A stretch of DNA of 64,000 nucleotides from an uncultured bacterium (GTDB lineage Bacteria; Hydrothermota; UBA3072). Shown here piece after piece: positions 3,534 to 52,087 of the stretch. The translations under genes and the position numbers were made by a program. The stretch is taken from assembly GCA_964556365.1 (NCBI GenBank), contig CAZKVT010000001.1, positions 7,158-71,157 of the forward strand, in the 5' to 3' direction. The notes beneath the pieces are model-generated. The model was given only the letters and a program-made list of their open reading frames with translations, was not told the DNA's origin and ran no database searches. Each line of letters begins with the position of its first letter. Position 1 is the stretch's first letter.

Positions 3534-3586
3534 CATTGTAGTTGGTTATGTTAAAAATTAATATGTAAACAATAAGGGAGGTAGGA

Positions 3587-4825: not shown

Positions 4826-4842
4826 AAGACTCAAAAAAACCC

Positions 4843-31459: not shown

Positions 31460-31488
31460 TTGACATTAAAGTTAAATTCCCTTATAAT
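31460..31488 (+). promoter_or_regulatory. consensus sigma70 promoter (TTGACA-17-TATAAT) for the lipoprotein/transglutaminase operon
   Basis: TTGACA is at 31460-31465 and TATAAT at 31483-31488, separated by a 17-nt spacer. Confidence 0.6.
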
Positions 31489-31596
31489 ATATTCAAACCG
31501 CTTTAAGAAATTTGTACTTTTTATCACTTTAATTATACACGAAAAAAGTGGGAATTGAGAAATTTGCTCTTTAAAAAATTATGTAAGGAGGTACGA

Positions 31597-34316: not shown

Positions 34317-34318
34317 CA

Positions 34319-36064
34319 ATATTATATATTTTACTGTTAACTGCTTCTTACGGAGCAACGATTCTCTCCGACTCCATCGCCATCAAAATCGACCCGGAAG
34401 GCTTAAAAACTTTCGATAGAAAGTTTATAGTACAAATAGAAAATCAACGCGGGAGGGAAGAATTCGGCGACATAGAAATCAGATATAATAATGAACATTC
34501 ACAATTTGAAATTGTCGAGGCATACACGGAAACTGAGAACGGCAAAAAATATGAACCCGATGAAGAAGGAATCGCGGACCTTTCTGCTTATGAAACGGCT
34601 ATAGCACCCATGTATTCTGAAAATAGATTAAAGGTTGTAAGTTTCAAAAAAGTTAACTCCGGAGCAAAAATATGCTATCATTACAGAATAACATCTAAAA
34701 CTTCTTCCGTTTTACCCTTTTCGGGTACTCACGTCTTCCGGGGAAGGTCGCCTATAAAAAAGAAGAGTTTTTCTCTTTTTCTACCCGATACCATGAATAT
34801 AAATTTTAATATCGAACCCGACCAAAAATCAAAAGAGGAAAATGAAATCTGTTATACTTGGGAAAGGAAAAATTTACTCCGTATAAAGGATTACGAATAT
34901 AGACCTCCGTATTCTTATATTGCGGGAGAGCTTATCTTCTCCTCCGCCAATTCCTGGCAAGAAATGGGCGTTTCTGTATACGATATCCTTAGCAAAGAAA
35001 TAAAACCTCTTAAAAGAACAAAAGAAATAGATAAATTATATTTATTTGTCAAAGATTCGATAAGAATAATACCCATTAGTTTACCCCTAACAGGTTCAGG
35101 GATTTTTTCTCCAAAAGAAATTATGAAAAATAAATATGGCGCGCCCAGAGACAAAAACACACTTTTCATCTCTCTACTGCAAGGAGCACAGCATGAAGCA
35201 TTCCCCGCCTTCATCTGTATAGGCTCTTTGAGTAAAGAAACCCTCTATAAAACCTTACCAACTCTATCTCCTTTTTTCCGCCTTGCGACTGCTGTAAACA
35301 TAGGAGACAGCATTCTTTTCTTAGATCCATCATGCAAATACTGCCCTTCAAATTATGTGGACTTTGAAGGCAAAACAGCATGGATAATAAAAAAGGATAC
35401 TTCATACTTCTATAAAGTTCCGAAATCGAACAATAACAAAATAAGCGTCGATAGCCGGTATGAGATTTCAACCGAAGGAAACCTAAAAGCGAAAATTACC
35501 GCGGAAATAACAGGCTGTTTTTTTGAATCCTTTCAATACTGGCTCGATTCCGAGAAAGAAGACACGAAAAAGAAATTCCTGGAATACATACTATCGGAAA
35601 TCTCGGTTTCCGCGAAAGCAGACACAATAAATATAGACATAACAAAAAATAAGGTACAAATAAATTTAACGTTCGAATCTCCGAGATACGCCCCGAAACA
35701 GGGTAAATATATAACAATGAAACTTATCAACAACATAGTACCTTTTTTCCCGCTTTCATCTCTCGTAAATTCAGAAGATAGATTGTATCCTTATTATTTT
35801 GATTTTTCAAACGCGAAAGTAGAAGAAAAAACAATAGTTGTATATCCTAAAACTTTGAATTTAGAGCATTTACCTGAAAATATGGAATTATCCGGAGACG
35901 GATACTTCTTTAAGATAGAATCATCTTCAAAAGACGAGCAAATCAGATTCATCCGAAAAGCTTCATATACCAAAAGAATAATCTCTGAGAAAACAGATGT
36001 TGCCGCGGACATTAAAAAATTTTTAGACGAAAATACACTCGGTGTGCTTTTTGTGGAAAAATAA
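34319..36064 (+). CDS. DUF3857 + transglutaminase-like paralogue lacking the catalytic Cys and His (pseudoenzyme); non-canonical start
   Basis: The tracked ORF starts at 34610, but the frame is open from 34271. Residues upstream of the tracked start (ILYILLLTASYGATILSDSIAIKIDPEGLKTFDRKFIVQIEN...) align to the N-terminus of the upstream paralogue. AAGGAG at 34307-34312 is followed by ATA 34319, ATT 34328 and CTG 34334, with no ATG/GTG/TTG. In the core, KYGAPRD has Pro 35144-35146 in place of Cys, and FRLATAVN has lost the His. Confidence 0.65.
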   Translation: MLYILLLTASYGATILSDSIAIKIDPEGLKTFDRKFIVQIENQRGREEFGDIEIRYNNEHSQFEIVEAYTETENGKKYEPDEEGIADLSAYETAIAPMYSENRLKVVSFKKVNSGAKICYHYRITSKTSSVLPFSGTHVFRGRSPIKKKSFSLFLPDTMNINFNIEPDQKSKEENEICYTWERKNLLRIKDYEYRPPYSYIAGELIFSSANSWQEMGVSVYDILSKEIKPLKRTKEIDKLYLFVKDSIRIIPISLPLTGSGIFSPKEIMKNKYGAPRDKNTLFISLLQGAQHEAFPAFICIGSLSKETLYKTLPTLSPFFRLATAVNIGDSILFLDPSCKYCPSNYVDFEGKTAWIIKKDTSYFYKVPKSNNNKISVDSRYEISTEGNLKAKITAEITGCFFESFQYWLDSEKEDTKKKFLEYILSEISVSAKADTINIDITKNKVQINLTFESPRYAPKQGKYITMKLINNIVPFFPLSSLVNSEDRLYPYYFDFSNAKVEEKTIVVYPKTLNLEHLPENMELSGDGYFFKIESSSKDEQIRFIRKASYTKRIISEKTDVAADIKKFLDENTLGVLFVEK

Positions 36065-36121
36065 AATAGGTTAAACAAACAACAAATTTATTTTATTAAA
36101 CAGCTTTTATAGTGATATCTG

Positions 36122-36191
36122 TTTTACAAATCAACAGGACAGGTATTTGAACTCCATCCGGCAAGACCGCCGAGAGCTACTTTTAAATTAT
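36122..36191 (-). pseudogene. orphan 3'-terminal fragment (about 21 codons plus stop) of an MBL-rhodanese gene; left copy of a 70-nt direct repeat
   Basis: The minus-strand translation is (TGA)NNLKVALGGLAGWSSNTCPVDL(TAA), compared with the C-terminus ..DNLKVALGGLAGWNSNTCPVDL* of the intact gene at 48189..49550. By manual alignment 65 of 70 nt are identical. Confidence 0.8.
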
Positions 36192-36240
36192 TTCATTCCC
36201 CTATACGAATAAACTCTCCCAAATAAACAAAATAGCTTTC

Positions 36241-36269
36241 TTGACATAAGTTAAAAATATGTTTATAAT
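36241..36269 (+). promoter_or_regulatory. consensus sigma70 promoter (TTGACA-17-TATAAT), predicted to give a leaderless transcript of the UbiA-like gene
   Basis: TTGACA is at 36241-36246 and TATAAT at 36264-36269. The ATG at 36275 is only 5 nt after the -10 element and there is no SD. Confidence 0.6.
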
Positions 36270-36274
36270 AAAGT

Positions 36275-37207
36275 ATGCCTGAAGGAAAAACCAAATCAAA
36301 AAAGAACAATAAACCAGAAAGTTTCCTTAAAAGACTAACTAAATATCAAAAAGAACGATTCCCGATAATTCAATATTTAATATATATACTTTTATATGAC
36401 CTTGGATTCTTTATTTTAAGTTCATATTTAGTAAACAAATATGTTTCTTTTTCAAGTATCAATATTATAGGATTTATATCTGTTTTTCTAATTTTCTTCG
36501 AACTACGCTTATTCGATGAAATTAAAGACTATGATATAGACTTAAAATACTCTCCCCAACGACCGGTACAACGAGGCTTAATATCTATAAATGAAGTAAA
36601 AAAAATGTTATTAATCGTTATAATTTTATTATTATTCTGCAATACATTTTATGGAATTCAAAATTTCGTACTTATGGTAATAATTCAGATTTACATTATT
36701 ATAATGGCAAAAGAGTTTTTTATAGGTAAAAAGTTAAAAAAGAATAGAGTACTCTACGCGATGCTCCATATGGTTGTAATGAGCTTAATGACACTTTACA
36801 TAATTTCTCATGCGGTACTTGTTAGTATGTTAAATATACGTCATCTTACACTCCTTGCGATTTCTTACCTGATAGGTTTTATAATCGAAGTGGGAAGAAA
36901 AATCGAAGCTCCAAAGGAGGAGAAACCAGGAGTCGACAATTACTCTAAACTTCTTGGGCCTAAGAAAGCTGCTTACCTTCTATTTTTCCTCACCTTGTTA
37001 AGTTCTATCTTTACTTTTTCAATTTTCATACAATTGAACAATACCGCCGGAATAATTTCCTTATTCTCACCTCTTATAGTATTAATAGGGGTTATAAATT
37101 TTATAATGAACATGAACAAAAGAAATTCCGCTATAATGAATTTCTCGGGCATTATCTATAATATGCTTATCTTCTCGATATTCATCTCAAGTTATTTCTG
37201 GGATTAA
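36275..37207 (+). CDS. UbiA-superfamily-like integral membrane prenyltransferase (divergent)
   Basis: There are about 8 TM helices. The first Asp-rich motif and following loop are LFDEIKDYDIDLKYSPQRPVQRGLIS (compare NDxxDxxxD....RPLPxGxxS of UbiA/DGGGPS enzymes). The second motif is degenerate (EVGRKIEAPKEEKPGVDNYSKLLG). Confidence 0.5.
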   Translation: MPEGKTKSKKNNKPESFLKRLTKYQKERFPIIQYLIYILLYDLGFFILSSYLVNKYVSFSSINIIGFISVFLIFFELRLFDEIKDYDIDLKYSPQRPVQRGLISINEVKKMLLIVIILLLFCNTFYGIQNFVLMVIIQIYIIIMAKEFFIGKKLKKNRVLYAMLHMVVMSLMTLYIISHAVLVSMLNIRHLTLLAISYLIGFIIEVGRKIEAPKEEKPGVDNYSKLLGPKKAAYLLFFLTLLSSIFTFSIFIQLNNTAGIISLFSPLIVLIGVINFIMNMNKRNSAIMNFSGIIYNMLIFSIFISSYFWD

Positions 37208-37208
37208 A

Positions 37209-39833
37209 GTGATTATAAAATTTGATAAGATAACGGAAAAGGATTTACCTTTAATAGGTGGTAAAGCAAAAAATCTATTTCTCCTTTCAAAAACCAAAGT
37301 GCCTGTACCGCCCTGGTACGTTATCCCTTACACTTTTTTTGAAGACTTTTTCAAAAAAAAAGAACCCATTATCAATAGCATACTTAAATCTTTGGATTAT
37401 AACGATATAGACAAATCGTCTTCTTCCTTAAAAAGTATTATCATAAAAGAACCAGACCTCATTAAAAATATTGCGAATCAGATTTATGCGATACCACTAG
37501 ATTTTTTTCCCGTAAGTGTTCGTTCCTCAGGTATTTTTGAGGATCTTGCATCACATTCATTCGCCGGTCAGTATAGTTCTTTCATGAATTTGAAAAAAGA
37601 AGATCTACCCGAATACATATTAAAATGTATTTCTTCAGTCTTTAATAAACAAAACATAATTTATCATTATAAGAATAATCTAGATATTTTAAAAAGTAGA
37701 GTTTCTGTAATAATACAGAAAATGATATACTCCGAAAAATCAGGTGTCATTTTTACTAAAGATCCTTCAACAGGAAAAAACTACGTTGTCATAAATGCCG
37801 CTTACGGACAAGGAGAAGGAGTAGTCTCCGATACAGTAAAAGCAGATACATACATTTATGATAAATTAGGAAATAAAATTAAAGAAATCATAGAAGAAAA
37901 AGATACAAAAATGATGATATCTCTTAATAGAGGTTTAATTATTAAACCTTTAGAAAATAAAGAAAAGAATAAAGCTACTCTTAGCGAAGAAGAAATTAAA
38001 CGGTTAATAAATTTTTCTAAAAAGATAGAGACTCACTTTGGGAATCCTCAGGATATTGAATTCGCCATGGAAGGAAATAATATATACATCTTGCAAAGCA
38101 GAGACATCACAACAATAAAAAAGAAAGCTTTATTAACCTGGGACAATTCCAATATAGTAGAAAGTTTCTCAGGTCCCACAACACCTTTAACTTTTTCATT
38201 TGCAAATGAAGCATACACTATAATCTATCAACTTGTTTTACAGAAATTAGGGGTCAGGAAAAAGGATATTGAAGATAACGAAATGATATTCACCAATATG
38301 ATAGGGTTTATTAATAATAGGGTTTATTATTCACTTAATAGCTGGTTTAAAACATTGTCTTTTCTCCCCGCATATAACTCAAATAAAGGATTTATGGAAG
38401 GTATGATGGGGGTAAAAGATTCTTACGAGCTAAAAGAGAGTAAAAAGAAAAGATTCAGCTTTAAGGGCATATGGGAGTTAATTAAGATTTCAATAAAACT
38501 GTTGATTACATATTTAACGCACGAAAGAAATGTAAAAAGATTCACTAATTTGTATGAAAAAACCATTACTTCATTCAGAGAACGAATTGTTAAGGTAGAT
38601 CATTTAACCGAATACATCGATTTATACAAATTTATGAAGAAAAAACTTCTTTATAATTGGATTACTCCTATAAATAATGATATCTTCACCATGGTTTCCT
38701 ACGGATTATTAAAAAAACATGTTGAAAAAATAATAGGTAAGAATTCAGAAGGTATACAGAATGATTTGCTGTCAGGCGAAGGTGATATTGAAAGCACCAA
38801 GGTAACATATGCAATATGGCACATTGCGGACATGATTAAAGAGAACAAATTCGCTAAAGAAAGCATTAAAAATAATAATTCACAAGAATTTATGTCTATT
38901 CTAAACAACTCGATCGAATTAAAAGATATAAAGAATAAACTTGATGAATTTTTTGAGAAATACGGTAATAGAAGTGTCAACGAACTAAAACTTGAAACCC
39001 CAAATCTCAAAGAGACACCTGAGAAAATATTATCCCTTATAAAGCAGTACGTTTTAAAAAGCGGGGAAAAACCTTATACCGGCGACCAAAAAATTCGCAA
39101 AGAGGCTGAGCAAAAAATCTACGCCGCCCTGAAAAAATATTTCTTTCTCAAGAGATTTTTCACGCACCGTCTATTCAGGTTTTTCCTATCAGACGCAAGG
39201 AGATTTGTAAAGCATAGAGAAAACATGAGATTTTTCAGAACGAACGTTTTTGGCGCTTCAAAAATAATATTTGTCGAAATCGGAAAAAAGTTTGAGAAAA
39301 ATAACATAATAGAAAAGAAACAGGATATATTCTTTTTAACCCTCGAGGAAATAATTTCATATATCTATGGAACTTCCGTAACTTACAATCTTAAAAGTCT
39401 TATTTCTCTACGAAAAAAGGAATACGAGGATTGCGAAAATAAGGAACCCCCAGAACGTTTTGAGACAGAATTCCCTCCATACGCTTATATGAATGATATA
39501 TTCAAAGAGGAAGAAACAGGAAACCTGGGAGGAATCGGGTGCTCTCCCGGCAGAATAAAAGGAAAGGTACAATTTGTTGAAAACCCTTATGATGTTAAGG
39601 CTTTTGGGGATATAATGATAGCGGAACGAACGGATCCCGGCTGGCTGCCTGTTTTCCCCTTATTTAAAGCTATAATAATTGAGAGAGGAAGTATGCTATC
39701 CCATTCTGCCATAGTGGCAAGAGAAATGGGAATCCCTGCTATCGTCGGAGCAAGAGGAATCAAAGATCTACTAAAGGATGGAGATATAGTGGAGATGGAT
39801 GGCAGCACAGGACTAATAAAAAAAGAGCAATAA
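37209..39833 (+). CDS. PEP/pyruvate-binding (ATP-grasp) plus PEP-utilising mobile His-domain protein, rifampin-phosphotransferase-like architecture
   Basis: The N-terminal motifs are LIGGKAKNLFLL and VRSSGIFEDLASHSFAGQYSSF. The C-terminal swivel domain is ERTDPGWLPVFPLFKAIIIERGSMLSHSAIVAREMGIPAIVGA, carrying the phospho-His. A large central helical region is present and there is no PEP-binding TIM barrel. The start is GTG. Confidence 0.8.
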   Translation: MIIKFDKITEKDLPLIGGKAKNLFLLSKTKVPVPPWYVIPYTFFEDFFKKKEPIINSILKSLDYNDIDKSSSSLKSIIIKEPDLIKNIANQIYAIPLDFFPVSVRSSGIFEDLASHSFAGQYSSFMNLKKEDLPEYILKCISSVFNKQNIIYHYKNNLDILKSRVSVIIQKMIYSEKSGVIFTKDPSTGKNYVVINAAYGQGEGVVSDTVKADTYIYDKLGNKIKEIIEEKDTKMMISLNRGLIIKPLENKEKNKATLSEEEIKRLINFSKKIETHFGNPQDIEFAMEGNNIYILQSRDITTIKKKALLTWDNSNIVESFSGPTTPLTFSFANEAYTIIYQLVLQKLGVRKKDIEDNEMIFTNMIGFINNRVYYSLNSWFKTLSFLPAYNSNKGFMEGMMGVKDSYELKESKKKRFSFKGIWELIKISIKLLITYLTHERNVKRFTNLYEKTITSFRERIVKVDHLTEYIDLYKFMKKKLLYNWITPINNDIFTMVSYGLLKKHVEKIIGKNSEGIQNDLLSGEGDIESTKVTYAIWHIADMIKENKFAKESIKNNNSQEFMSILNNSIELKDIKNKLDEFFEKYGNRSVNELKLETPNLKETPEKILSLIKQYVLKSGEKPYTGDQKIRKEAEQKIYAALKKYFFLKRFFTHRLFRFFLSDARRFVKHRENMRFFRTNVFGASKIIFVEIGKKFEKNNIIEKKQDIFFLTLEEIISYIYGTSVTYNLKSLISLRKKEYEDCENKEPPERFETEFPPYAYMNDIFKEEETGNLGGIGCSPGRIKGKVQFVENPYDVKAFGDIMIAERTDPGWLPVFPLFKAIIIERGSMLSHSAIVAREMGIPAIVGARGIKDLLKDGDIVEMDGSTGLIKKEQ

Positions 39834-40712
39834 ATGTCCCTGATAGACTTATATAAAAAGAAAAGCTATTATAAAATAAAAAAATTTAGAAATAAAGATA
39901 GCAGTTTTACAGCTTACATAAGGGATATTAACCAAAAAAAAATTGCAGGATTGGGATTCTTAGATTTAGAGAAAGATTACGGAAATTTTAAAAAGCTAAT
40001 CGAAAATACAGAATTATGGTTTCGAGAAAACCAAATCAATAAATACTATGCTCCTATGAATTTCAACAGCTGGTACGAATATAGGATTGCTTCTGAGCAC
40101 CTTGAAAACACTCCTTTTCCTTTAGAAAAAATATACCCCGATTATTATCTCGATTTTATTAAAAAATCCGGTTTTCTCCCGAGCATAAATTATTTTTCAT
40201 ATATTATAACCAAGCCCGAACCTCTAATGACACATTTAAAACCCTTTGTCAGAAAAATGAGAAAATTGGGTTTTAGAGTTAGAGAGATTACTACCGGAGA
40301 AAAGGATTTAGTTTTAGAAAGCATATATGATATTTCAGTAGAAAGCTTCAAAGGCGCGCCTCTTTTCGAAGAGATACCCTATAAAGAATTTTATTCATTA
40401 TACGAACCTTTAATCTCGAAAATTCAAGAACGTTATATTATAATCGCAGAAAAAAAAGATGTAATTGAAGGCTTCATTTTTTCTCTTCCTTTTGAAGATA
40501 AACTCACTCTTAAAACAGTGGGAGTCAGACCTTCTATTCAAGGAAAATATATAGCTCCCACACTTATTTACGAAACCTATAAAAGAGGATGTGAAGACAA
40601 TTTCAAGAAATTTTTCCACGCTTATATGCGAGAAGGCATTTCAACCCATACCTTCTCGAAAAGGCACGGTGATATTTACCGGAAATACACTCTTTATGAA
40701 AAAATCCTTTGA
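39834..40712 (+). CDS. GNAT-like acyltransferase (tentative)
   Basis: The C-terminal region YIIIAEKKDVIEGFIFSLP...LKTVGVRPSIQGKYIAPTLIYETYKRG resembles the GNAT beta4-alpha3 (R/Q)xxGxG/A acyl-CoA binding segment. The N-terminal half is unassigned. Confidence 0.4.
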   Translation: MSLIDLYKKKSYYKIKKFRNKDSSFTAYIRDINQKKIAGLGFLDLEKDYGNFKKLIENTELWFRENQINKYYAPMNFNSWYEYRIASEHLENTPFPLEKIYPDYYLDFIKKSGFLPSINYFSYIITKPEPLMTHLKPFVRKMRKLGFRVREITTGEKDLVLESIYDISVESFKGAPLFEEIPYKEFYSLYEPLISKIQERYIIIAEKKDVIEGFIFSLPFEDKLTLKTVGVRPSIQGKYIAPTLIYETYKRGCEDNFKKFFHAYMREGISTHTFSKRHGDIYRKYTLYEKIL

Positions 40713-42129
40713 GAATCCGGTAGAACTCGTCTTCGATACAATCAAAGATAAAAAAAAGAAAGCACTAATCCAACCAATTAACAGTCTGTTCAAATTCAGG
40801 TTCGATAGTATATCCTTCGAGGATTTAAAAAGAGAAGCTTTAAGATACTCAAGCCTCTTAAGAAAACATTATAAAATAGGAAAAGGAACCAAAGTGCTAC
40901 TTATGGTTCCCTTTTCTATCGAAATGTATATAAGCGTAATAGCAATATTTCTCCTGGGAGGATGTGTTATTTTCATAGAACCCTGGATTGGCAAAAATTT
41001 ATTTAAAAAAGTTTTGAATTCTGTGAATACAAAATTCGTTATCTCGAGCTTTAAAACCAGAATACTGTTAAGGCTTTTTGGATTTATCGATAGAAATAAA
41101 ATCTTTATCAAACCTGCAATAAGAAATAAAAAAGGGGTACTAATTAAAGAGGAAAAAAACCAAATATCAAAGGCAAATATAGCTGTAATAACTTTTTCAA
41201 CCGGCAGTAGTGGTATACCTAAACCCATAAAGAGGAGTTACGGAGATTTAGAATACCAAATGTATAGACTCTCTCGGCACATAAAAAAAGAGAAAAGCGT
41301 AGACTTCGTCTCTTTCCCCAATCTTGTTCTTTACAGTTTATCCAAACACACTACCACAATTATACCTGAAAAAGGTTTCAAAGGCTCTACCCCTATAAAT
41401 AAAAAAACACTAAAAGACTGTATTGATAAAGAAAATCTCAGCCGCCTGTTCCTCAGTGTTTCGCATCTTTCCACTATAAAAGATAAGGATATCTTTGAAA
41501 AAATCGACTCTATCTATACAGGAGGCAGTACAATCGAAAAAAGCTTTATAAGAAAGTATAACCTCGCGAAAAAAATTCATATTTTATACGGATCCACCGA
41601 AATTGAACCCATAGCAACTATTAATGGTATCGATTTCCTAAGAATAAAGGAAAGAGGAATACCGGTCGGGAAAATAGATAATTCTTTAGAATTAAAAATC
41701 GAACCTATGGAAGAAAACATTGGTGAGATTTTAATAAAATACAAAGATAAAACAAAATCTCCAATGGAATGGATTAGGACGGGGGACATCGGATATTTAA
41801 ATAAAGATAATGTACTGATACTAATGGGAAGAAAAATAGATGTTTTTCCCATTAAGGGAATATATATATATCCTTACGAGATACAAAATATAATGGATGA
41901 AGAGGAAATCACACAAAAGATTATACCCTATGTTAAAAACGAAAGACTTTTAATAATTGTAGAAGGGGAAGAGAATAAAAACATATCAATAAAAATAGAT
42001 AAAGCCCTTAAAGAAAGAAAGATATCTCCGGATAAAACAGTATTTATGAAAGAAATACCAAGAGATCCAAGACATAGAGCAAAAATTGATATGAAGAAAC
42101 TATCTAAAAAGATAAAAAACTATTTTTGA
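40696..42129 (+). CDS. AMP-dependent synthetase/ligase (acyl/aryl adenylating enzyme)
   Basis: The motifs are FSTGSSGIPKPIKRS (A3, T/S-S-G-x-x-G-x-P-K), ILYGSTEIEP (A5) and RTGDIGYLNKDNVLILMGRKID (A7/A8). I prefer the ATG at 40696 (MKKSFENP...) to the tracked 40591, which would overlap the upstream gene by 122 nt. Confidence 0.8.
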   Translation: MKKSFENPVELVFDTIKDKKKKALIQPINSLFKFRFDSISFEDLKREALRYSSLLRKHYKIGKGTKVLLMVPFSIEMYISVIAIFLLGGCVIFIEPWIGKNLFKKVLNSVNTKFVISSFKTRILLRLFGFIDRNKIFIKPAIRNKKGVLIKEEKNQISKANIAVITFSTGSSGIPKPIKRSYGDLEYQMYRLSRHIKKEKSVDFVSFPNLVLYSLSKHTTTIIPEKGFKGSTPINKKTLKDCIDKENLSRLFLSVSHLSTIKDKDIFEKIDSIYTGGSTIEKSFIRKYNLAKKIHILYGSTEIEPIATINGIDFLRIKERGIPVGKIDNSLELKIEPMEENIGEILIKYKDKTKSPMEWIRTGDIGYLNKDNVLILMGRKIDVFPIKGIYIYPYEIQNIMDEEEITQKIIPYVKNERLLIIVEGEENKNISIKIDKALKERKISPDKTVFMKEIPRDPRHRAKIDMKKLSKKIKNYF

Positions 42130-44108
42130 TTCTTTAAAAAAGTTCCCAATATTATCGAATCACAAAAATAAGCTGTAACTATTGCGATTGCAGAGAGAAT
42201 CCCAAAATAATTTATCGTTGTTAACTTCGCAAAGATCAAAAGAAAGAAACCGGTAGAAAGAATGAAAGAAGTGATAAACATAGGTTTTATTGCTTCCTTT
42301 TTCTCTCCATGTTTATTGGCGTAAAGATAATGTATTGTATCATCAACAACAATTCCCATTACAATAGGGGTTATAATTATAGTTCCTACATCAAGAGGTA
42401 TTCCAAACAAACCCATAATACCCAATACCGTTATCACCGGAAAAATATTAGGATAGAATGATTTAACTCCGCTTTTAAAACCAAAAAATAATATAATCAC
42501 TGTAAAGATAACAAGTATAGAAATGGGAAATGAGGAAAATTGACTGTCTTCTAGATATTTAATAAGTTTTACATAAAGAGGTAAATAACCGGATGCTTTT
42601 ATTTCTTTTTTCGAAAATTGCTCAAAATAATCTATCAGGTTCTTTATAATTTTTTCGACTTCTCTTGCGCTAACCATGGGTATAAAAACAGTGATTCTTA
42701 AGGTTTTTCTTCCATTACCAGGTCTTATCACATAAGTTTGTTCTACTTCACCGAACATCTTAGAATAACTGAGGAAATTAGTCATCGTAATATTATTGAT
42801 AGAAATCGAGTTGTATCCATAATGAGATTTCAAGCTATCTTGAAACAATTCAACAGTTTTATCGATTTCCAGATCTTCCTCATTTGTCTCCACAAGAAGC
42901 TCTAACGGAAGATAAAATCCAATATTTTCCTCTATCCATTCCGAATCTTTTCTAACTATATCACCTTCTCTTAACATACCAATAGAATATGTGTCTACCC
43001 TCAAAAATTTCATCCCAAAAACAAAAACGCTTAAAAATACTAAAGAAATTGTTAAAACGATTCCTTTTCTCTTGCTTGTAATTTTAGTTATAATATTTTC
43101 CAACTTTTTAAATGTTAAAAAATTCTTCTTTGATAAAGAAAACTTATCTATGAAAATAGAAAAAACGGCAATTGTTACGAAAAATTCGATCAAGACTCCA
43201 ACACCACCGTAAAAACCAAGTTGTTTAACACATGTTATTCTTGAAGAAACAAGCGACAGGTATCCAAAAAAAGTAGTGAGAGAAGTAAGTAAACAGGGCA
43301 CAGCGATATGTGAAAGTTTTTTCTTTTTGTCGTCTGCCAGATTTAAAGTAAATACAATATAAACAATATCGGATAAACCGTATATTAAAATAAGAACCGG
43401 GAGCATAGAAGTAATCATGTTAACAGGATCTCCCAGTACAACAAAAACACTCATTAAAACTAATATCGAAAATACCACACAAAACATGGAAAGAAAAATG
43501 ATTCTCCAGTCCTTTAAAATAATCCCCGAAAGTATAAAAATGTAAGCAAAAACTATAACAATAAATAGAGTAACATTTTCCTGTGTTACCACATTCAACC
43601 TATTATATAAAACAGTTATACCCGCCAGATGATAATCAAATGCTGATTTCTCCATTATTTCTTTTATTCTTTTTATTATTTTACCCCTTTTCTTTTCTAT
43701 AATTTTATCTTTTACAAGAGGCACAATAATCATTGTGGAAAGATAATCTTCGGAAATAAGCATCTGTTTTGCTTCTTTATCTAAAAAAGGAGAGGTTATT
43801 GAAACAGGCAAATCGGTATATTGAACATTGCGCAATGAATCTTCAATTCTTAATAATTGCTTTATATTCTCCTCGGTAATAAAAGAATATTTTGATTCCA
43901 TAGCAATTATAACTTGCTCATCATTACCAAATTTTTCGAGAAAACTTTTGTATTCATGTAATTGAGGATCGTTTTCAGGAAACCATATATCGAGATTGTT
44001 GGAAATTTTTAAACCTTTCAAAGAAACAATAGAAAAAATGAATATTATTAACAGCAAAAAAGATGTAATTATTTTATATTTGTTCAGAAAATAAATACAT
44101 TTATACAT
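42120..44108 (-). CDS. RND-superfamily exporter of the MMPL/HpnN (COG1033) type
   Basis: An N-terminal TM helix is followed by a periplasmic loop starting NLDIWFPENDPQLHEYKSFLEKFGNDEQVIIAME. Two bundles of about 5-6 TM helices are separated by a second soluble loop. Its 3' end overlaps the convergent ligase gene by 10 nt. Confidence 0.7.
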   Translation of the reverse strand: MYKCIYFLNKYKIITSFLLLIIFIFSIVSLKGLKISNNLDIWFPENDPQLHEYKSFLEKFGNDEQVIIAMESKYSFITEENIKQLLRIEDSLRNVQYTDLPVSITSPFLDKEAKQMLISEDYLSTMIIVPLVKDKIIEKKRGKIIKRIKEIMEKSAFDYHLAGITVLYNRLNVVTQENVTLFIVIVFAYIFILSGIILKDWRIIFLSMFCVVFSILVLMSVFVVLGDPVNMITSMLPVLILIYGLSDIVYIVFTLNLADDKKKKLSHIAVPCLLTSLTTFFGYLSLVSSRITCVKQLGFYGGVGVLIEFFVTIAVFSIFIDKFSLSKKNFLTFKKLENIITKITSKRKGIVLTISLVFLSVFVFGMKFLRVDTYSIGMLREGDIVRKDSEWIEENIGFYLPLELLVETNEEDLEIDKTVELFQDSLKSHYGYNSISINNITMTNFLSYSKMFGEVEQTYVIRPGNGRKTLRITVFIPMVSAREVEKIIKNLIDYFEQFSKKEIKASGYLPLYVKLIKYLEDSQFSSFPISILVIFTVIILFFGFKSGVKSFYPNIFPVITVLGIMGLFGIPLDVGTIIITPIVMGIVVDDTIHYLYANKHGEKKEAIKPMFITSFILSTGFFLLIFAKLTTINYFGILSAIAIVTAYFCDSIILGTFLKNQK

Positions 44109-45462
44109 TTAACACCCCTTTTAACTGAAGGACTAAAATGATTAAAACTATAAAAATAGAAATAAGGTTTCTTAAACTTCTATTCAAATTATAACTTGGG
44201 CTATCGATCAACTTTCTTCTAATAGTCGTATATATAATATCGGACAAGATACATCCGAATATAAAAACTAAAGAGAAACCCAAATTATTATAGGGTTTAT
44301 ACAGTAATTGAGGTATCATTAAAATAAATATACCCGACAATAAAAAACCAATATTACCAAAAATGCTTTTATGTTTTTCGATTAAACGTACCTTTAGCCT
44401 ACCATCGATAAACCAGTGACGCCAGAGTAATGTAAAATGGACTCCTGCCGAACATAAAAATGCCATATATAAAAATCTTTCTTGTGAAAATACATTAGCA
44501 GCAAAAACTATAAGTATTGGAATTAAAAAAATCCTCAACAAAGAACCTACTCTAAAAGACCTGGACTCTTCAGCCGGTTCAATATAAAATATTAAATTCA
44601 TAAAAACGAATCCGATAAAAAACAAAACTATCGGAATGTAATAAACGAATCCAGCCAAACTCCATGCCGCATAACTGGCAAGGATTAAAGTTATAAGTCC
44701 ACTAAAACTTATCTTTTTCATCTTCAAACCCAGGATAAATGAAACTATAATAATAAGAGACAATGTCGCGACCTGTAGGATAATTTCTTCTGTGGGTTTG
44801 GCGGATAACTTAAATAATATGAAAAAAGTTCCGAACGGCACGAGTATATTGTCGCTACCTTTAAGAGAAATTAATTCTAAAGCAGTTACAAGAAGGGCAA
44901 CCATGAACCCCAGCAACAAGGAATTCAATCTACTGATATCGGATAACAAGAGAAGAGGTATGTGTACAATAAGAAAAGTTATAAAGAAAAAGCTCACTGA
45001 ACCTTCAGTGCTTTTATCTTGATATTGCACTCTATACTTAATATAACCATAGGCTTTCCCTATAATAGCAGCTATGGGATCCGAAACTGTCATAACCGCA
45101 ACGGAAATTGCGTAAACAACCGGAACATTCTTTCCGAGCGCAAAAAGAAGAAATATTGCGATCGGAAAGTAAAATTCTCCTTCCGTTTCTCTTTCAATCC
45201 CCGTGACTCCTTCGATAAGACCTCTTTTTTTACCTGCGAAAATCAATAATACAAAAAGCAAACAAAGAATAAAAACTGTCAGTCTAAAATTAAAAATAAC
45301 AGGAAAAAACATTGCAAGCATACCGCTTAAAAAGTGTACCAGTTTTCTGGTTAATTCTACACTCAAACGGGTTTTTCTATGTATCATTTCTGCGGTTACG
45401 AAAAATAAAATGTAACATAAAGAAATGATTATAGCTTTTACTAATTCCGTCTCCCAACCCAT
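44101..45462 (-). CDS. polytopic membrane protein with N-terminal polyprenol/dolichol/phytol-kinase-like (CTP-transferase-1 superfamily) domain
   Basis: LTRKLVHFLSGM (RKxxH) and VSDPIAAIIGKAYG (D..A..(I/V)G...G) match signatures of Sec59/VTE5-type kinases. About 230 aa of additional TM helices lie at the C-terminus. It is coupled to its neighbours (TAATG and an 8-nt overlap). Confidence 0.5.
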   Translation of the reverse strand: MGWETELVKAIIISLCYILFFVTAEMIHRKTRLSVELTRKLVHFLSGMLAMFFPVIFNFRLTVFILCLLFVLLIFAGKKRGLIEGVTGIERETEGEFYFPIAIFLLFALGKNVPVVYAISVAVMTVSDPIAAIIGKAYGYIKYRVQYQDKSTEGSVSFFFITFLIVHIPLLLLSDISRLNSLLLGFMVALLVTALELISLKGSDNILVPFGTFFILFKLSAKPTEEIILQVATLSLIIIVSFILGLKMKKISFSGLITLILASYAAWSLAGFVYYIPIVLFFIGFVFMNLIFYIEPAEESRSFRVGSLLRIFLIPILIVFAANVFSQERFLYMAFLCSAGVHFTLLWRHWFIDGRLKVRLIEKHKSIFGNIGFLLSGIFILMIPQLLYKPYNNLGFSLVFIFGCILSDIIYTTIRRKLIDSPSYNLNRSLRNLISIFIVLIILVLQLKGVLNV

Positions 45463-46574
45463 TATAATTTTTCCTCGATTATAAATCTCTTATAGAAAAA
45501 CGCTTTCGAATTCTCAAGAAGTTTCTCAGCTATTTCGTCATGGGATTTAACAGATTTTTGTAGTCTCGCCGGACATTTTCTATCGGCGAGCATATTCCAA
45601 TATACAAATCTGCATCCCTTTTTTCCTGATTTCAATAGGTTTTCGTAAATTTCTTCAAAAGTATTATAATCTAAATATTCGAAGATATCCGAAAGATTGT
45701 AACCGTTAAAAGCGTTTTCTTTTTTTAAACCTTCTTCGACAGAACCTTGAATAATTACTAATTTATCAAGATTTGATTTAACCCTTTCAAAATTCTCCTT
45801 ACGTAAATAATGAGGAAGAATATGCCTAAAATTACCATTTAAAATGAAATCGATATATGGATTCTCTTTGGCGGGAATATTTATAAGTCCCTTATTGACT
45901 CTATTTTTTATATTCTTCGCGACGGGAACTTTAACATAATCAAAAAACTCCGGAGCCCTACCCAAACGTCCCATAACAAAACGGCCAAAGAAAACTCTAA
46001 ACATTAATTTCCACCGAAAAGAATTCCATTTTCCATAAAAGAATTCTTCCCTATCTTCTTTATTTCTATCTACAAACAAAGACTGTATAGTATTTCTATT
46101 ATGAATAAAAGGAATAACATATATTCTGAATATCTTAAAATATTTTTCAAACTTTCCTTCGAAAATAATCCCGTTTTTTATCTTGTTTAAATTATTATTC
46201 CAGAAATCTCTCGATTCTGACGGTAATTCCGACGCAAAGCTTTTATAAATCGACACTCTTTCTTTACAGGGATATACACCAAAAAATCTCAACACTTCTT
46301 CATAGCTAAGTCTTTTTATAGCCGCTTCTTTCAAATGAAAAAGTGCTATCTGAGCTTTACTAATATCGACACCAATAACTCTTTTAGGAAAACCTGTAAG
46401 CAAAGAAAAAGTATTATCTCCGCCGGAAACCACAGAAAGATAAACTCCATCTTTTTTGATATCCAAAGCTTTTAACAAAGCTTCAGTATCCTCCCAACAG
46501 TTCGCGTATCGAATAATACTAAATGTGTTCTTATTCAAATTATTATTTTTTTTACTTCGAGGATTTCCTTCCAT
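45462..46574 (-). CDS. DUF3419 / BtaA-like SAM-dependent (3-amino-3-carboxypropyl) transferase family protein
   Basis: IRYANCWEDTEALLKALDIKKDGVYLSVVSGGDNTFSLL and VDISKAQIALFHLKEAAI match the Y.qCWEDp...AL....S.G.N and D.n.aQ.aLleLK blocks I recall for BtaA/DUF3419. Confidence 0.65.
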   Translation of the reverse strand: MEGNPRSKKNNNLNKNTFSIIRYANCWEDTEALLKALDIKKDGVYLSVVSGGDNTFSLLTGFPKRVIGVDISKAQIALFHLKEAAIKRLSYEEVLRFFGVYPCKERVSIYKSFASELPSESRDFWNNNLNKIKNGIIFEGKFEKYFKIFRIYVIPFIHNRNTIQSLFVDRNKEDREEFFYGKWNSFRWKLMFRVFFGRFVMGRLGRAPEFFDYVKVPVAKNIKNRVNKGLINIPAKENPYIDFILNGNFRHILPHYLRKENFERVKSNLDKLVIIQGSVEEGLKKENAFNGYNLSDIFEYLDYNTFEEIYENLLKSGKKGCRFVYWNMLADRKCPARLQKSVKSHDEIAEKLLENSKAFFYKRFIIEEKL

Positions 46575-47835
46575 ACTTTTTATGCGCTAAAGCAAAATCC
46601 CCGGCAGAAAGAGCTCCAATAATAGATATTTCTCCCCCCAGAATTATCGCCGTGCAAATTTCAGCAAATTTCTGAGATTTTCCACTTCCTAGACAATCTA
46701 CTAAACTTAAACACTCAGCCTGTGTCGGCAGAGAAGTTCCTCCTCCCACAGTACCTACAACTAAATTAGGAAGAGTAACCGCTACGTACAACTTATCATC
46801 ATCCGTAATATCGAGCCGTGTAATACCTACAGCCGCTTCAGACACACATGCTACATCCTGCCCACAGGCTATAAATATCGCAGCAAGCGCATTGGCGTAA
46901 TGCCCCTGCGACCCAATCGAACCGGATTGCACCGCACCTATAACAGACATGTTATAATATGCTACCATATCTTCTGGTTCAGCATGCAATAACCTTTTAC
47001 AAATTTTTCTTGGTATAAAAACTTCAGCCGTAACTTTTTTACCTCTAACAAAAAGATAAGACATTGCTGTTGCCTTTTTATCGCCTGATAAATTGCTTTC
47101 AATAAACCATTTTTTCGGCTTTGTCGGAGAATTTTCCATTATATACTGACAAATAACATCGGTACAGAACGTAACCATATTTTGCCCCGAAGCATCGCCC
47201 GTCTTGTACTCAAAATTAAGATAAACATGATTTCCTTCAACTGTAGCCCTGACGTCTTCAAGAATACCATGACTTGTTTCTTTAGAGACAACATTCTTGA
47301 ATTTATCGAAATTATCAACAACCCAGATTAAAAATTCCCCGGCTTTAATCAAATTATCAAAAATAAATCCAGGCGCTCTGGAAACTCTTTCAGTAAGACA
47401 CATAACTCTAGCCCCACCACATAAATTTATAACCTTCGCGCCTCTATTATGCGATGCGATAAGTGCTCCCTCAGTTGTTGCCATAGGAATGTAAAAATCC
47501 CCATGCGAATATATACCATTCACTCTAATCGGACCAACTACACCAACCGGCATCTGCGCTAAGCCAATATAATTCTCAATATTTCCTTCAAAAATTTCCG
47601 GATTATCGATCGTTTTTTTCCCAGACAAAAAATCAAACTCAAAACCTTGTTTTTCTAAAGTCCTTAACCTCTTTAACTGGTCTTCCTTCGTCAGAGAAGT
47701 TTCTCTTGGTAAAGAAGGAGGCATTTTTTCTTCTTTGATAGATCTCGATTGAAGTTTTTTAATAACAGCCTCTTTAGATCTTCCTTTAAGAATTGCTTCT
47801 ATAATTTCCTTCGATATATCTTTTGATACCGGCAT
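46552..47835 (-). CDS. hmgA: class I hydroxymethylglutaryl-CoA reductase (soluble catalytic domain)
   Basis: The motifs are IENYIGLAQMPVGVVGPIRVNG, YIPMATTEGALIAS, TGDASGQNMV and GTVGGGTSLPTQAECL, corresponding to the class I ENVIG / DAMGxN / GTVGGGT blocks. Confidence 0.85.
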   Translation of the reverse strand: MPVSKDISKEIIEAILKGRSKEAVIKKLQSRSIKEEKMPPSLPRETSLTKEDQLKRLRTLEKQGFEFDFLSGKKTIDNPEIFEGNIENYIGLAQMPVGVVGPIRVNGIYSHGDFYIPMATTEGALIASHNRGAKVINLCGGARVMCLTERVSRAPGFIFDNLIKAGEFLIWVVDNFDKFKNVVSKETSHGILEDVRATVEGNHVYLNFEYKTGDASGQNMVTFCTDVICQYIMENSPTKPKKWFIESNLSGDKKATAMSYLFVRGKKVTAEVFIPRKICKRLLHAEPEDMVAYYNMSVIGAVQSGSIGSQGHYANALAAIFIACGQDVACVSEAAVGITRLDITDDDKLYVAVTLPNLVVGTVGGGTSLPTQAECLSLVDCLGSGKSQKFAEICTAIILGGEISIIGALSAGDFALAHKKYGRKSSK

Positions 47836-47992
47836 CCAATCAACCCCTTTACTTGAAATAAGATATACTCGTAAAAGATATCAACCATTGGTTCATTAAG
47901 ACTGTATTCCTCCCAATTTTATGAGCGCCTTTAAGTAAATACTTACCCGAATTTTTAACTATAACAAATCTAGCCTGTACGGACATATTGTT

Positions 47993-48021
47993 ATTATAAT
48001 TACTTTCATGGTTTATGTCAA
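47993..48021 (-). promoter_or_regulatory. consensus sigma70 promoter (TTGACA-17-TATAAT on minus strand) for the HMGR operon
   Basis: The minus-strand sequence is cTTGACAtaaaccatgaaagtaatTATAATaac. The -35 is at 48016-48021 and the -10 at 47993-47998. This predicts a leader of about 150 nt before the ATG at 47835. Confidence 0.6.
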
Positions 48022-51014: not shown

Positions 51015-51254
51015 ATGAATTTTGAAGAATCTCTTAATAAGCTTGAAGATATTGTCAAAAAATTGGAAAAAGGAGAGATTTCTCTTGAAGAATCTCTTCC
51101 TCTATTCGAAAAAGGCATGGAAATCCTAAGTAATCTTAAAGACTATCTCGCTGATGCTGAAATCAAAATAGAGAAATTAATAAAAGATAGTGAAGGTAAA
51201 TTTAAAACCGATGAATATAGAGAATTACCTGAAAAATTGGAAGAAGAGAGTTGA
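51015..51254 (+). CDS. xseB: exodeoxyribonuclease VII small subunit
   Basis: MNFEESLNKLEDIVKKLEKGEISLEESLPLFEKGMEILSNLKDYL is a typical XseB sequence. The gene is followed by ispA and dxs, as in the E. coli xseB-ispA-dxs operon. Confidence 0.85.
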   Translation: MNFEESLNKLEDIVKKLEKGEISLEESLPLFEKGMEILSNLKDYLADAEIKIEKLIKDSEGKFKTDEYRELPEKLEEES

Positions 51255-52086: not shown

Positions 52087-52087
52087 A

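Follow-up and report, generated by a model that had tools for sequence, protein, structure and literature searches.

What compound could be made by a locus that unites putative genes for prenyl transfer, lipid-alcohol phosphorylation, aminocarboxypropyl transfer and acyl activation? The question is raised by a segment of the 64,000-nucleotide stretch of DNA analyzed here (the window), which derives from an uncultured bacterium. A preliminary description recognized in this segment two convergent, internally coupled four-gene operons with 3' ends overlapping by 10 nt (42120-42129), and proposed that they encode a self-contained isoprenoid or aminolipid biosynthesis-and-export system. All eight open reading frames were found as placed there, and profile searches upheld every family assignment. 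The observation thus stands; its interpretation, as discussed below, is borne out only in part.

Organization of the locus

The predicted features of the segment are as follows.

36241..36269, plus strand: plus-operon promoter, perfect sigma70-type TTGACA-N17-TATAAT
36275-37207, plus strand: UbiA-like gene, 310 aa
37209-39833, plus strand: Rph-type dikinase gene, 874 aa
39834-40712, plus strand: GNAT gene, 292 aa
40696-42129, plus strand: ANL adenylating-enzyme gene, 477 aa from the gene-caller ATG (40696; the longest ORF opens at GTG 40591)
42120-44108, minus strand: RND exporter gene, 662 aa
44101-45462, minus strand: polyprenol-kinase-family membrane protein gene, 453 aa
45462-46574, minus strand: DUF3419/BtaA-family gene, 370 aa
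46552-47835, minus strand: HMG-CoA reductase (HMGR) gene, 427 aa
47993..48021, minus strand: minus-operon promoter, perfect sigma70-type TTGACA-N17-TATAAT

In the plus operon the first two junctions are gaps of 1 and 0 nt and the third is an overlap of 17 nt; successive genes of the minus operon overlap by 23, 1 and 8 nt. The segment ends, 36241 and 48021, coincide with the -35 boxes of the two promoters. Only three perfect TTGACA-N17-TATAAT sites are present in the 64 kb, where chance alone would give 0.01; judged by this sequence match, each operon would be driven by its own promoter. The two promoters are near-identical, with TTTCTTGACATAA and TTATAATAA in common beyond the boxes, and both are kept in relatives 80-85% identical. 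Since only 6 nt separate the -10 box from the ATG at 36275, the plus-operon transcript is probably leaderless. Downstream of the minus-operon promoter lies a 5' leader some 158 nt long, in which neither an Rfam match nor a stable fold was found. The cluster forms a low-GC island.

A conserved six-gene core

Among other genomes we found the gene set to be kept: 29 non-redundant loci carry at least four of six core families, and 20 carry all six. They come from at least 13 bacterial phyla and show at least 10 different gene orders; co-localization of the families is far beyond chance. Many hosts bear names of proteobacteria or Bacillota; two carriers are cultured strains, Roseinatronobacter sp. 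S2 (where the cluster is on a plasmid) and Brevibacillus laterosporus B9. Three near-invariant pairs make up the conserved unit, namely UbiA followed by the dikinase (adjacent in 24 of 27 loci), DUF3419 followed by the kinase (26 of 29) and GNAT followed by ANL (22 of 22). Riflebacteria have the kinase without the rest of the cluster. All eight families recur together in two loci (L031 and L037), but the view of a self-contained, eight-gene system must be narrowed: the core is six genes, while HMGR (14 loci) and the RND protein (8 loci, including the window) are accessory. We take the cluster to be a genuine, horizontally mobile biosynthetic unit. It appears to be widespread and, as the preliminary description had supposed, without a characterized counterpart so far: no published description or curated family was found in the searchable literature or NCBIfam.

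Predicted activities of the core proteins

The product of the first plus-strand gene is assigned by sequence to the UbiA superfamily of membrane prenyltransferases, as a divergent member. It scores 33.4 bits with Pfam UbiA (cut-off 34.2), which 18 of 19 orthologs match; its best NCBIfam hit is an unnamed prenyltransferase family (NF010118, 92.8 bits), followed by PRK12884 (30 bits, cut-off 269) and BchG. The nearest solved relatives of its profile are archaeal DGGGP synthase (6m31; E 1.8e-9, 40 bits, full length) and chlorophyll synthase (25 bits). Both of these are O-prenyltransferases, which makes the prenyl-O-linked product of the original proposal plausible. The first Asp-rich motif reads DExKDxxxD...RPxxRG; in place of the second stands a non-canonical ExxRK...E, so that the donor or the acceptor may be unusual.

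The neighboring protein is predicted to be a rifampin-phosphotransferase-type dikinase. It has the ATP-grasp PPDK_N (236 bits), Rph_4th and swivel phospho-His/PEP-utilizers (84 bits) domains, lacks the PEP/pyruvate TIM barrel, and matches best Listeria RPH in the PDB (5hv1/5fbs, 255 bits); its scores lie under the cut-offs for Rph, PpsA and PigC.

The DUF3419 protein matches PF11899 over its full length (210 bits), and the motif LSxxSxGDN...D is kept in 28 orthologs. It is a putative SAM-dependent 3-amino-3-carboxypropyl transferase of the DUF3419/BtaA family, whose only characterized members, to our knowledge, are BtaA/BTA1. Residues 1-222 of its partner correspond to a predicted CTP-dependent diacylglycerol/polyprenol (dolichol/phytol) kinase-family domain, the N-terminal half retrieving diacylglycerol/polyprenol, phytol and dolichol kinases with E values of 1e-47 to 1e-30. 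Relatives of this domain occur fused to DUF92, and the remainder of the protein, residues 223-453, probably represents a DUF92 (VTE6-like) domain that has decayed; the DUF92 motifs are absent from the protein, and only sub-threshold remnants were detected. A model of the protein gave no significant structural match.

The remaining pair would supply and transfer an acyl group. The predicted GNAT-type acyltransferase carries its GNAT domain in the C-terminal half of a protein of about 300 aa; Acetyltransf_1 is hit by 21 of 23 orthologs, at best with 1.6e-10, and by the protein of the window itself with only 16 bits. The N-terminal half has a conserved GPMNGxTWxxYR motif. The ANL-superfamily adenylating enzyme, by its profile a candidate acyl-AMP/CoA ligase, scores 70 bits with AMP-binding and 165 bits with NF006754 (under the cut-off), at most 33 bits with any solved structure, and retains motifs A3, A5, A7, A8 and A10.

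Accessory genes

The HMGR gene is an accessory of the cluster, found at the head of the array in 13 of the 14 loci that have it. Its product (384 bits, class I) conserves the catalytic and HMG-carboxylate-binding residues and shows a cluster-specific variant, GDA[SA]GQNM versus GDAMGMNM. The RND protein, also a frequent accessory (orthologs in L005, L009, L031, L037, L043, L068 and L069), is predicted to be a compact HAE3/MMPL-like exporter with a sterol-sensing-type domain (MMPL 26 bits, sterol-sensing domain 22.7 bits, TIGR00921 61 bits). Seven loci have ABC half-transporters; exporters, like HMGR, are missing from about half the loci. Fatty-acid-activating and LplT-Aas-like genes are likewise frequent companions. 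An MFS-PlsC-acyl-ACP-synthetase gene of the latter type lies directly upstream of the cluster in two phyla (L020 and L036), and in L048 the dikinase is fused with a fatty-acyl-AMP-ligase/ACP didomain, which in L046 lies next to it. The A-T didomain, which together with a racemase accompanies the cluster in Clostridia, carries a motif of fatty-acid ligases and not of amino-acid ligases. The recurrence of exporter, LplT-PlsC-Aas-like and fatty-acyl-AMP-ligase/ACP genes beside the cluster speaks for the lipid character first attributed to it.

A proposed pathway and its alternatives

We consider it about an even chance (0.5) that the cluster makes a membrane-anchored amphiphile, exported where a transporter is present. 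The product we infer is a lipid that is both O-prenylated and N-acylated and bears a homoserine-type head group. Its synthesis could begin with CTP-dependent phosphorylation of a free isoprenoid alcohol by the polyprenol-kinase-family protein, whose own VTE6-like half is decayed, the second phosphate probably coming from the dikinase. With the resulting prenyl diphosphate, or with FPP/GGPP from the neighboring MEP genes, UbiA would O-prenylate the acceptor, as its nearest relatives do in their own chemistry. In the manner of BtaA, the DUF3419 enzyme would use SAM to place a 3-amino-3-carboxypropyl group on a lipid hydroxyl, and the amino group would be N-acylated by ANL and GNAT, with an acyl unit probably derived from mevalonate in loci that have HMGR. 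Outward transport would fall to the RND or ABC protein. Both the sequence of these reactions and the acceptors named for them are provisional. The presence of two polytopic membrane enzymes counts in favor of a lipid product. Against it, the acceptor of the DUF3419 enzyme could be other than a lipid, and the dikinase gene adjoins UbiA and not the kinase; we know of no precedent for phosphorylation of a prenyl phosphate in the Rph family. The non-canonical second motif of UbiA, the many loci without HMGR or exporters and the solitary kinase of Riflebacteria also count against it.

The cluster might instead serve mainly in prenol salvage, kinase and dikinase turning free phytol, geranylgeraniol or farnesol back into diphosphates for transfer by UbiA to a housekeeping acceptor. 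This would mirror plant VTE5/VTE6/VTE2 and would fit the kinase family with its DUF92-fused relatives, the decay of the DUF92 half, the constant presence of UbiA and the many hosts that, by record titles, come from guts and sediments rich in chlorophyll debris. However, DUF3419, GNAT and ANL, only loosely connected in such a scheme, are conserved and linked as strictly as the kinase and UbiA and therefore belong to the same pathway, and exporter, HMGR and acyl-activating genes would be superfluous for salvage alone. We regard this as unlikely to be the main role.

It also seems doubtful that the amphiphile proposed above should give way to a diffusible specialized metabolite, for example a small prenylated N-acyl amino acid (N-mevalonyl-homoserine-like), secreted by RND or ABC transporters and not a structural lipid. 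The set of HMGR, ANL and GNAT, with its parallel to SidI/SidF, would suit such a compound, as would the exporters, the Clostridia didomain and racemase, the low GC content and the patchy, plasmid-borne, HGT-like spread. Yet in two phyla the cluster is joined by a lysolipid re-acylation gene, the didomain motif points to fatty acids, and, as far as known, all characterized enzymes of the kinase and BtaA families use membrane lipid alcohols.

Two further readings are highly improbable. Bacterial acquisition of an archaeal-type ether-lipid pathway (GGGP/DGGGP-like), as suggested at the outset, would account for DGGGP synthase being the best solved relative of UbiA, but that match is distant, as is PRK12884, and a survey of recurrent families in the flanks analyzed does not show GGGP synthase, G1P dehydrogenase or CarS as regular neighbors. 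A mevalonate-pathway or isoprenoid-supply cluster, read from a canonical-looking HMGR at the operon head together with the "kinase" and UbiA, is contradicted by the many loci without HMGR, by the lipid-alcohol (not mevalonate) kinase and by FPP synthase and Dxs (ispA-dxs, MEP pathway) being encoded in the window itself (51190-54388, 3.4 kb from the cluster). The flanks of the loci analyzed share no further recurrent gene family, so no mevalonate-pathway gene (HMG-CoA synthase, mevalonate or phosphomevalonate kinase, decarboxylase) is a regular neighbor. The earlier idea that HMGR feeds isoprenoid precursors is thus not supported.

Comparison with known systems

The dikinase has in common with Listeria/Bacillus RPH and PigC/RedH a three-part architecture (ATP-grasp, substrate-binding part including Rph_4th, swivel His), which implies conversion of ATP to AMP and Pi with transfer of a phosphoryl group to a hydrophobic substrate. 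Unlike them, it is far under every equivalog cut-off, adjoins a UbiA gene and in one Clostridia case is fused with the fatty-acyl-AMP-ligase/ACP didomain. The UbiA-like protein shares the first Asp-rich motif and RP..G with DGGGP and (bacterio)chlorophyll synthases but is very distant from both, carries ExxRK...E and lacks a GGGPS or chlorophyll context. Plant and cyanobacterial phytol salvage likewise combines a CTP-type prenol-kinase domain with a UbiA transferase; there VTE5 is a phytol kinase, VTE6 a phytyl-phosphate kinase (DUF92) and VTE2 an aromatic C-prenyltransferase, whereas in the cluster the DUF92 half is decayed or missing, an Rph-type dikinase is present instead and UbiA is closest to O-prenyltransferases.

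In fungal siderophore synthesis of the fusarinine type, HMGR provides mevalonate for the ligase SidI and the GNAT transacylase SidF, a use of HMGR, ANL ligase and GNAT together outside isoprenoid synthesis, as may be the case here; the cluster lacks a SidH-like hydratase and an NRPS, and the likeness is offered as an analogy. The accessory transport and re-acylation genes are of the types of the HpnN/MmpL RND lipid exporters and E. coli LplT-Aas, but the RND protein scores 18-29 bits with HpnN equivalogs (cut-offs 752-1100) and the exporter differs by locus, being RND, ABC or none.

The BtaA/BtaB pathway to DGTS in Rhodobacter sphaeroides, with its algal counterpart BTA1, has the full-length DUF3419/BtaA protein in common with the cluster. 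By analogy, transfer of the 3-amino-3-carboxypropyl group to a lipid hydroxyl would create a phosphorus-free amino-acid head group; the acceptor in the cluster may be an isoprenoid instead of DAG. In contrast to that pathway, the cluster loci have no BtaB N-methyltransferase and hence do not specify DGTS synthesis; DUF3419 is paired with a polyprenol-kinase-family gene, and GNAT and ANL stand alongside, so that N-acylation would take the place of N-methylation.

Layout and promoters of the cluster

The eight genes lie in two four-gene operons that face each other and share 10 nt at their 3' ends (42120-42129), as had been proposed from a first reading of the sequence; the ORF listing bears out these positions. 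The family names given to the products in the preliminary description are likewise upheld by Pfam and NCBIfam searches with the window proteins, their orthologs and, for the kinase, a profile.

Genes and promoters of the cluster
36241-36269, plus strand, perfect TTGACA-N17-TATAAT promoter
36275-37207, plus strand, UbiA-like prenyltransferase
37209-39833, plus strand, Rph-type dikinase
39834-40712, plus strand, GNAT-like acyltransferase
40696-42129, plus strand, adenylating enzyme (ANL)
42120-44108, minus strand, RND exporter
44101-45462, minus strand, putative membrane kinase
45462-46574, minus strand, DUF3419 protein
46552-47835, minus strand, HMG-CoA reductase (HMGR)
47993-48021, minus strand, perfect TTGACA-N17-TATAAT promoter

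Along the plus-strand operon, successive genes lie 1 nt apart, directly abut (0 nt) and overlap by 17 nt, respectively; those of the minus-strand operon overlap by 23, 1 and 8 nt. The limits of the cluster, 36241 and 48021, are the -35 hexamers of its two predicted promoters. The 64-kb window has three perfect sites of this kind where chance would give 0.01, and the two that flank the cluster are near-identical outside the hexamers too, with the common extended sequence TTTCTTGACATAA ... TTATAATAA. The minus-operon promoter is kept in relatives with 80-85% identity. The third perfect site (31460-31488, plus strand) precedes an ORF at 31555-32391. Because the ATG of the UbiA gene, the first of its operon, lies 6 nt past the -10 box, the plus-operon mRNA is probably leaderless. 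A 45-codon ORF upstream of the HMGR gene (47849-47986, minus strand) begins at the same position relative to its -10 box; a similar frame exists in the related locus L069 but is cut to 6 codons in L068, and we rejected this ORF as a gene because it is probably not conserved. We also abandoned the idea that the 158-nt leader of HMGR holds a riboswitch or another structured RNA, since an Rfam search gave nothing with an E value below 0.78 and the fold z-score (+1.1) indicates no unusual stability. G+C content is 0.29-0.33 over the cluster (36001-46000) versus 0.35-0.44 in most of the window, a drop that would fit either horizontal acquisition or AT-rich membrane-protein genes.

The neighbourhood in the window is varied. 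Directly upstream of the cluster lies a pair of genes for DUF3857 proteins (32388-36064, plus strand), one of them also with a transglutaminase core; the pair is not conserved beside the cluster in other loci. Two giant adjacent ORFs (14355-20195 and 20202-25487, both minus strand) encode 1,946 and 1,761 aa; no Pfam match is recorded for the product of the second, and the database entry for that of the first ends at the contig end. A flippase-like LPG_synthase_TM protein (TIGR00374, 99 bits) is encoded at 57130-58140 (plus strand), 9 kb from the cluster.

A conserved core of three gene pairs

A scan with the kinase alignment, covering one genome per species, returned 57 loci, whose six-frame ORFs were searched with the eight window proteins. 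Scan and protein look-up together yielded 29 non-redundant loci with at least four of six core families and 20 with all six. By their database labels, the hosts are WOR-3 (the closest, 46% identity), Bacteroidetes, Fibrobacterota, Melainabacteria, Gamma- and Betaproteobacteria, Desulfobacterales and other "delta" proteobacteria, Kiritimatiellota (Pontiellaceae), Verrucomicrobia (Akkermansiaceae), Sulfurimonadaceae, Latescibacterota, animal-gut Clostridia, Leptotrichia rugosa (complete genome) and Actinomycetota. Two further carriers, each with HMGR and the six core genes, came from a plasmid search: Roseinatronobacter sp. S2, where the cluster sits on a 137-kb plasmid, and Brevibacillus laterosporus B9, where it spans about 459-477 kb of NZ_CP011076.1. 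The L. rugosa genome is that of strain HSP-334, and the Latescibacterota genome OZ252100 is likewise complete. RefSeq annotation of the Roseinatronobacter genes is generic only, two of them being labelled "hypothetical protein".

At least ten gene orders are found among the loci, and three pairs are almost invariant: UbiA is followed by the dikinase in 24 of 27 cases, DUF3419 by the kinase in 26 of 29, and GNAT by the adenylating enzyme in all 22. To judge from sequence, the six families form one conserved unit of three pairs, predicted to be co-transcribed. The expectation that the cluster would recur in other genomes is thus met by the 29 loci, with all eight families present in two (L031, L037); the eight-gene unit originally envisaged does not hold, HMGR and the RND exporter being accessory.

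Prenyltransferase, dikinase and kinase

The window UbiA protein is a borderline match to PF01040 (33.4 bits; cut-off 34.2) and matches NF010118 with an E value of 2.5e-26; PF01040 is matched by 18 of 19 orthologs, at best with 3.2e-18. The first Asp-rich motif together with RP..G is invariant across 19-25 orthologs as DExKDxxxD....RPxPRG. The second Asp-rich motif, DxxxD, is absent, and a conserved ExxRKxR....E..G..TY stands there instead. Among solved structures the ortholog profile finds only archaeal DGGGP synthase (6m31, a full-length match with E 1.8e-9) and, behind it, chlorophyll synthase; both enzymes prenylate oxygen. The 874-aa dikinase consists of an ATP-grasp PPDK_N domain, Rph_4th and a swivel His domain, the latter with the sequence GSMLSHSAIVAREMGIP in the translation; the PEP/pyruvate TIM-barrel domain was not found in the Pfam search. 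Its best solved match is the rifampin phosphotransferase of Listeria (255 bits), and it falls far under the NCBIfam equivalog cut-offs for Rph (294 vs 999), PEP_synth (274 vs 740) and PigC (327 vs 1300).

For the kinase, a membrane protein of 453 aa, sequence and profile searches of Pfam, NCBIfam and the PDB with the whole protein gave no match. Its all-helical AlphaFold2 model (pLDDT 86) retrieved nothing significant from the PDB with Foldseek, CdsA (4q2e) having the highest probability (0.57; E 0.86). A profile of residues 1-222 found stand-alone proteins of 208-237 aa (E 1e-47 to 1e-30) whose names, automatic annotations of their sources, are "diacylglycerol/polyprenol kinase family" (NCBI) and "phytol kinase" or "dolichol kinase" (JGI). 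The protein carries the motif D-x2-A-x3-G-x3-G...K-S-x-E-G, which in our estimation resembles the CTP motif of DOLK. In more remote full-length relatives the kinase domain is followed by an intact DUF92 domain, which we take to be the family of the plant phytyl-phosphate kinase VTE6. PF01940 (DUF92) finds no match in the C-terminal half of the window kinase, and the conserved DUF92 motifs are gone from the cluster-type proteins; the traces seen in relatives are all sub-threshold (P0009, E 0.009; P0013, E 2.7e-4; hhalign, E 0.0023 and probability 12%). The C-terminal half is missing in Leptotrichia and in loci L052 and L053. A 184-aa ORF behind the short Leptotrichia kinase proved unrelated to that half. 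The kinase-family matches, the DUF92-fused relatives and the lost DUF92 motifs together lead us to read the protein as a putative prenol kinase of CTP type whose second-kinase domain has decayed.

A word-index search, with 18 matches, had suggested a tiny kinase family; this was rejected when an exhaustive search produced 12,468 representatives (E up to 0.001). Full-length homologs with 30-37% identity occur in Riflebacteria/Ozemobacteraceae (L010, L012, L014-L019, L021-L025, L030, L035), with none of the remaining cluster genes nearby. The solitary homolog of L014 is surrounded by genes for hydrogenase, GAF proteins, a nucleotidase and a peptidase, all unrelated.

HMG-CoA reductase and its isoprenoid context

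The window HMGR belongs to class I (PF00368, 384 bits). The closest solved enzyme is archaeal (6hr7, 303 bits), and the score against TIGR00533 (327; cut-off 441.8) is under the equivalog level. Aligned with 6hr7 and plant HMGR, the window enzyme retains the R-A-P residue as well as the catalytic Glu, Lys (DKK), Asp and His, and the catalytic residues are kept in all 12 full-length cluster HMGRs aligned (the truncated L009 copy was left out). Every one of the 16 cluster copies examined reads GDA[SA]GQNM, versus GDAMGMNM in reference class I enzymes, which points to a dedicated HMGR subfamily. The gene is present in 14 loci and heads the array in 13 of these; in L033 it is divergently transcribed.

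Some 3.4 kb past the cluster, at 51190-56383 (plus strand), lies an E. coli-like xseB-ispA-dxs group (FPP synthase, 287 bits, above cut-off; Dxs, TIGR00204, 806 bits), followed by lpxC-fabZ-lpxA. These genes identify the host as Gram-negative and as a carrier of the MEP entry enzyme, and it is therefore very unlikely that the cluster HMGR serves isoprenoid synthesis in general. UbiA can draw its prenyl diphosphates from the housekeeping pathway.

Head-group, acylation and export proteins

The DUF3419 protein matches PF11899 over its full length (210 bits, residues 16-366), and the SAM-binding-type motif LSxxSxGDN...D is conserved in 28 orthologs; no solved structure of DUF3419 exists. Among GNAT orthologs, 21 of 23 match a PF00583-type domain, which forms the C-terminal half (best 1.6e-10). 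The window GNAT (292 aa) is not itself significant (16.2 bits vs a cut-off of 20.7), and its RGxGLG acyl-CoA-binding motif has degenerated to QGKYIAP. An AlphaFold2 model built from a 3-sequence alignment was unusable (pLDDT 46), and an internal duplication was rejected (hhalign probability 5%). The adenylating enzyme scores 70 bits against PF00501; its translation contains core motifs A3, A5, A7, A8 and A10 (TGSSGIPKP, YGSTE, RTGD, GRKID..K.G and the terminal Lys), and it is distant from all solved enzymes. The 662-aa exporter is above the cut-offs for MMPL (26.2 bits; 20.5) and the sterol-sensing domain (22.7; 22.3) and under the equivalog cut-offs for HAE3 (61 vs 352) and HpnN (18-29 vs 752-1100). 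By these profile scores it is probably a compact RND protein of HAE3/MMPL type and not an HpnN equivalog.

Accessory genes at other loci

Genes for transport and for the handling of fatty acids are found alongside the cluster. An RND exporter is encoded in 8 loci, the window included; ABC half-transporters are present in 7. Upstream of HMGR, L020 (Melainabacteria) and L036 (Pontiellaceae) encode a protein of 1,118-1,162 aa that combines MFS, PlsC-acyltransferase and AMP-binding parts, and in Clostridia there is a second adenylating enzyme with a carrier domain and the LPLNH..E motif of fatty-acid ligases.

Fatty-acid-handling genes at other loci
L020, 318-3806, MFS + PlsC + AMP-binding gene, overlaps the HMGR gene
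L036, 1706-5062, MFS + PlsC + AMP-binding gene
L048, 12464-16729, fatty-acyl-AMP-ligase + carrier-protein didomain fused to the dikinase, 1,421 aa
L046, 17193-19788, fatty-acyl-AMP-ligase + carrier-protein didomain as a separate gene after the dikinase, then an Asp/Glu racemase gene

The first of these architectures is presumably that of LplT-Aas lysophospholipid re-acylation. In L046 an Asp/Glu racemase gene follows the separate dikinase and ligase-carrier genes. On the Roseinatronobacter plasmid (L072, NZ_CP121116.1) genes for a WavE-family protein, two GT2 glycosyltransferases and a HAD phosphatase (851-5029) stand directly upstream of the HMGR-led cluster on the same strand, which hints at a cell-envelope glycan link in that one strain. 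Further ORF families that seemed to recur near the cluster were rejected as antisense shadows inside core genes; with these set aside, the flanks analysed show no gene of the mevalonate pathway, for GGGP synthase or for a methyltransferase that regularly accompanies the cluster.

Discussion

We regard it as a solid lead that the cluster is of a lipid or natural-product biosynthetic type, assembled from known enzyme families whose combination has not been described, and with a hypothetical product. Two members appear from their sequences to be polytopic membrane enzymes of the lipid-alcohol kinase and prenyltransferase families. We propose a pathway in which the kinase would activate free prenol, with a second phosphorylation plausibly carried out by the dikinase, which would have displaced DUF92. 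UbiA would then O-prenylate an acceptor, the DUF3419 enzyme would move the aminocarboxypropyl group of SAM onto a lipid hydroxyl, and the resulting amine would be N-acylated by the adenylating enzyme and GNAT. In loci with HMGR the acyl unit would probably be mevalonate-derived, by analogy with the HMGR-SidI-SidF logic of fungal siderophores, and RND or ABC pumps would export the product. In its full form, this reading holds that the cluster makes a bacterial membrane lipid of a new class, phosphorus-free and O-prenylated (through an ether or ester), whose homoserine-type head group would come from SAM and be N-acylated and not N-methylated, in half of the carriers with a mevalonate-derived acyl unit. 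The pathway would spread horizontally across at least 13 phyla, gut Clostridia and oral Leptotrichia among them, and would provide the first lipid-biosynthetic role for an Rph-type dikinase and a dedicated non-isoprenoid role for HMGR in MEP-pathway bacteria. We give this about one chance in four.

Two rivals keep their place beside the aminolipid. The function might centre on prenol salvage, or the product might be a secreted small metabolite. An archaeal-type ether lipid pathway, to which the kinship of UbiA with DGGGP synthase might seem to lead, is contradicted by the lack of partner genes and by the MEP context. The ortholog profile reaches 40 bits against 6m31 and the window protein 30 bits against PRK12884 (cut-off 269), below the equivalog level, and no further gene family that could represent GGGPS or G1P dehydrogenase recurs in the flanks analysed, in a screen for recurrence as distinct from a family-specific search. 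The same two arguments contradict an isoprenoid-supply cluster. The supply of mevalonate-derived isoprenoids through HMGR, a part of the original proposal, is not supported in view of the MEP genes in the window and the missing mevalonate partners: HMG-CoA synthase, mevalonate kinases and decarboxylase are not among the recurrent families in the flanks, these immediate neighbourhoods being the range covered. Anti-phage defence was rejected because PADLOC matched none of the eight window proteins.

The literature searched, including every paper that mentions DUF3419, does not describe this gene set, and three of the eight proteins lack an NCBIfam model; both agree with the initial remark that no characterised pathway of this composition is known. 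If the inferred chemistry of the prenylated aminolipid is right, the cluster would represent a widespread, unrecognised route to such a lipid. It would give functions to DUF3419 proteins outside DGTS synthesis and to many Rph paralogues annotated "phosphoenolpyruvate synthase", would explain the orphan class I HMGRs of MEP-pathway bacteria, and could yield a new biomarker lipid for use in anoxic sediments and in gut communities. The cultured carriers Roseinatronobacter sp. S2 and Brevibacillus laterosporus B9 make the cluster directly testable.

To our knowledge, BtaA-like, UbiA, Rph-type dikinase, polyprenol kinase and orphan HMGR proteins are not known to work together. One point of comparison is BtaA. 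In the DGTS route BtaA has an N-methyltransferase partner, BtaB, whereas the loci analysed show no recurrent methyltransferase family; what the window DUF3419 protein does share with BtaA is the PF11899 domain over its full length.
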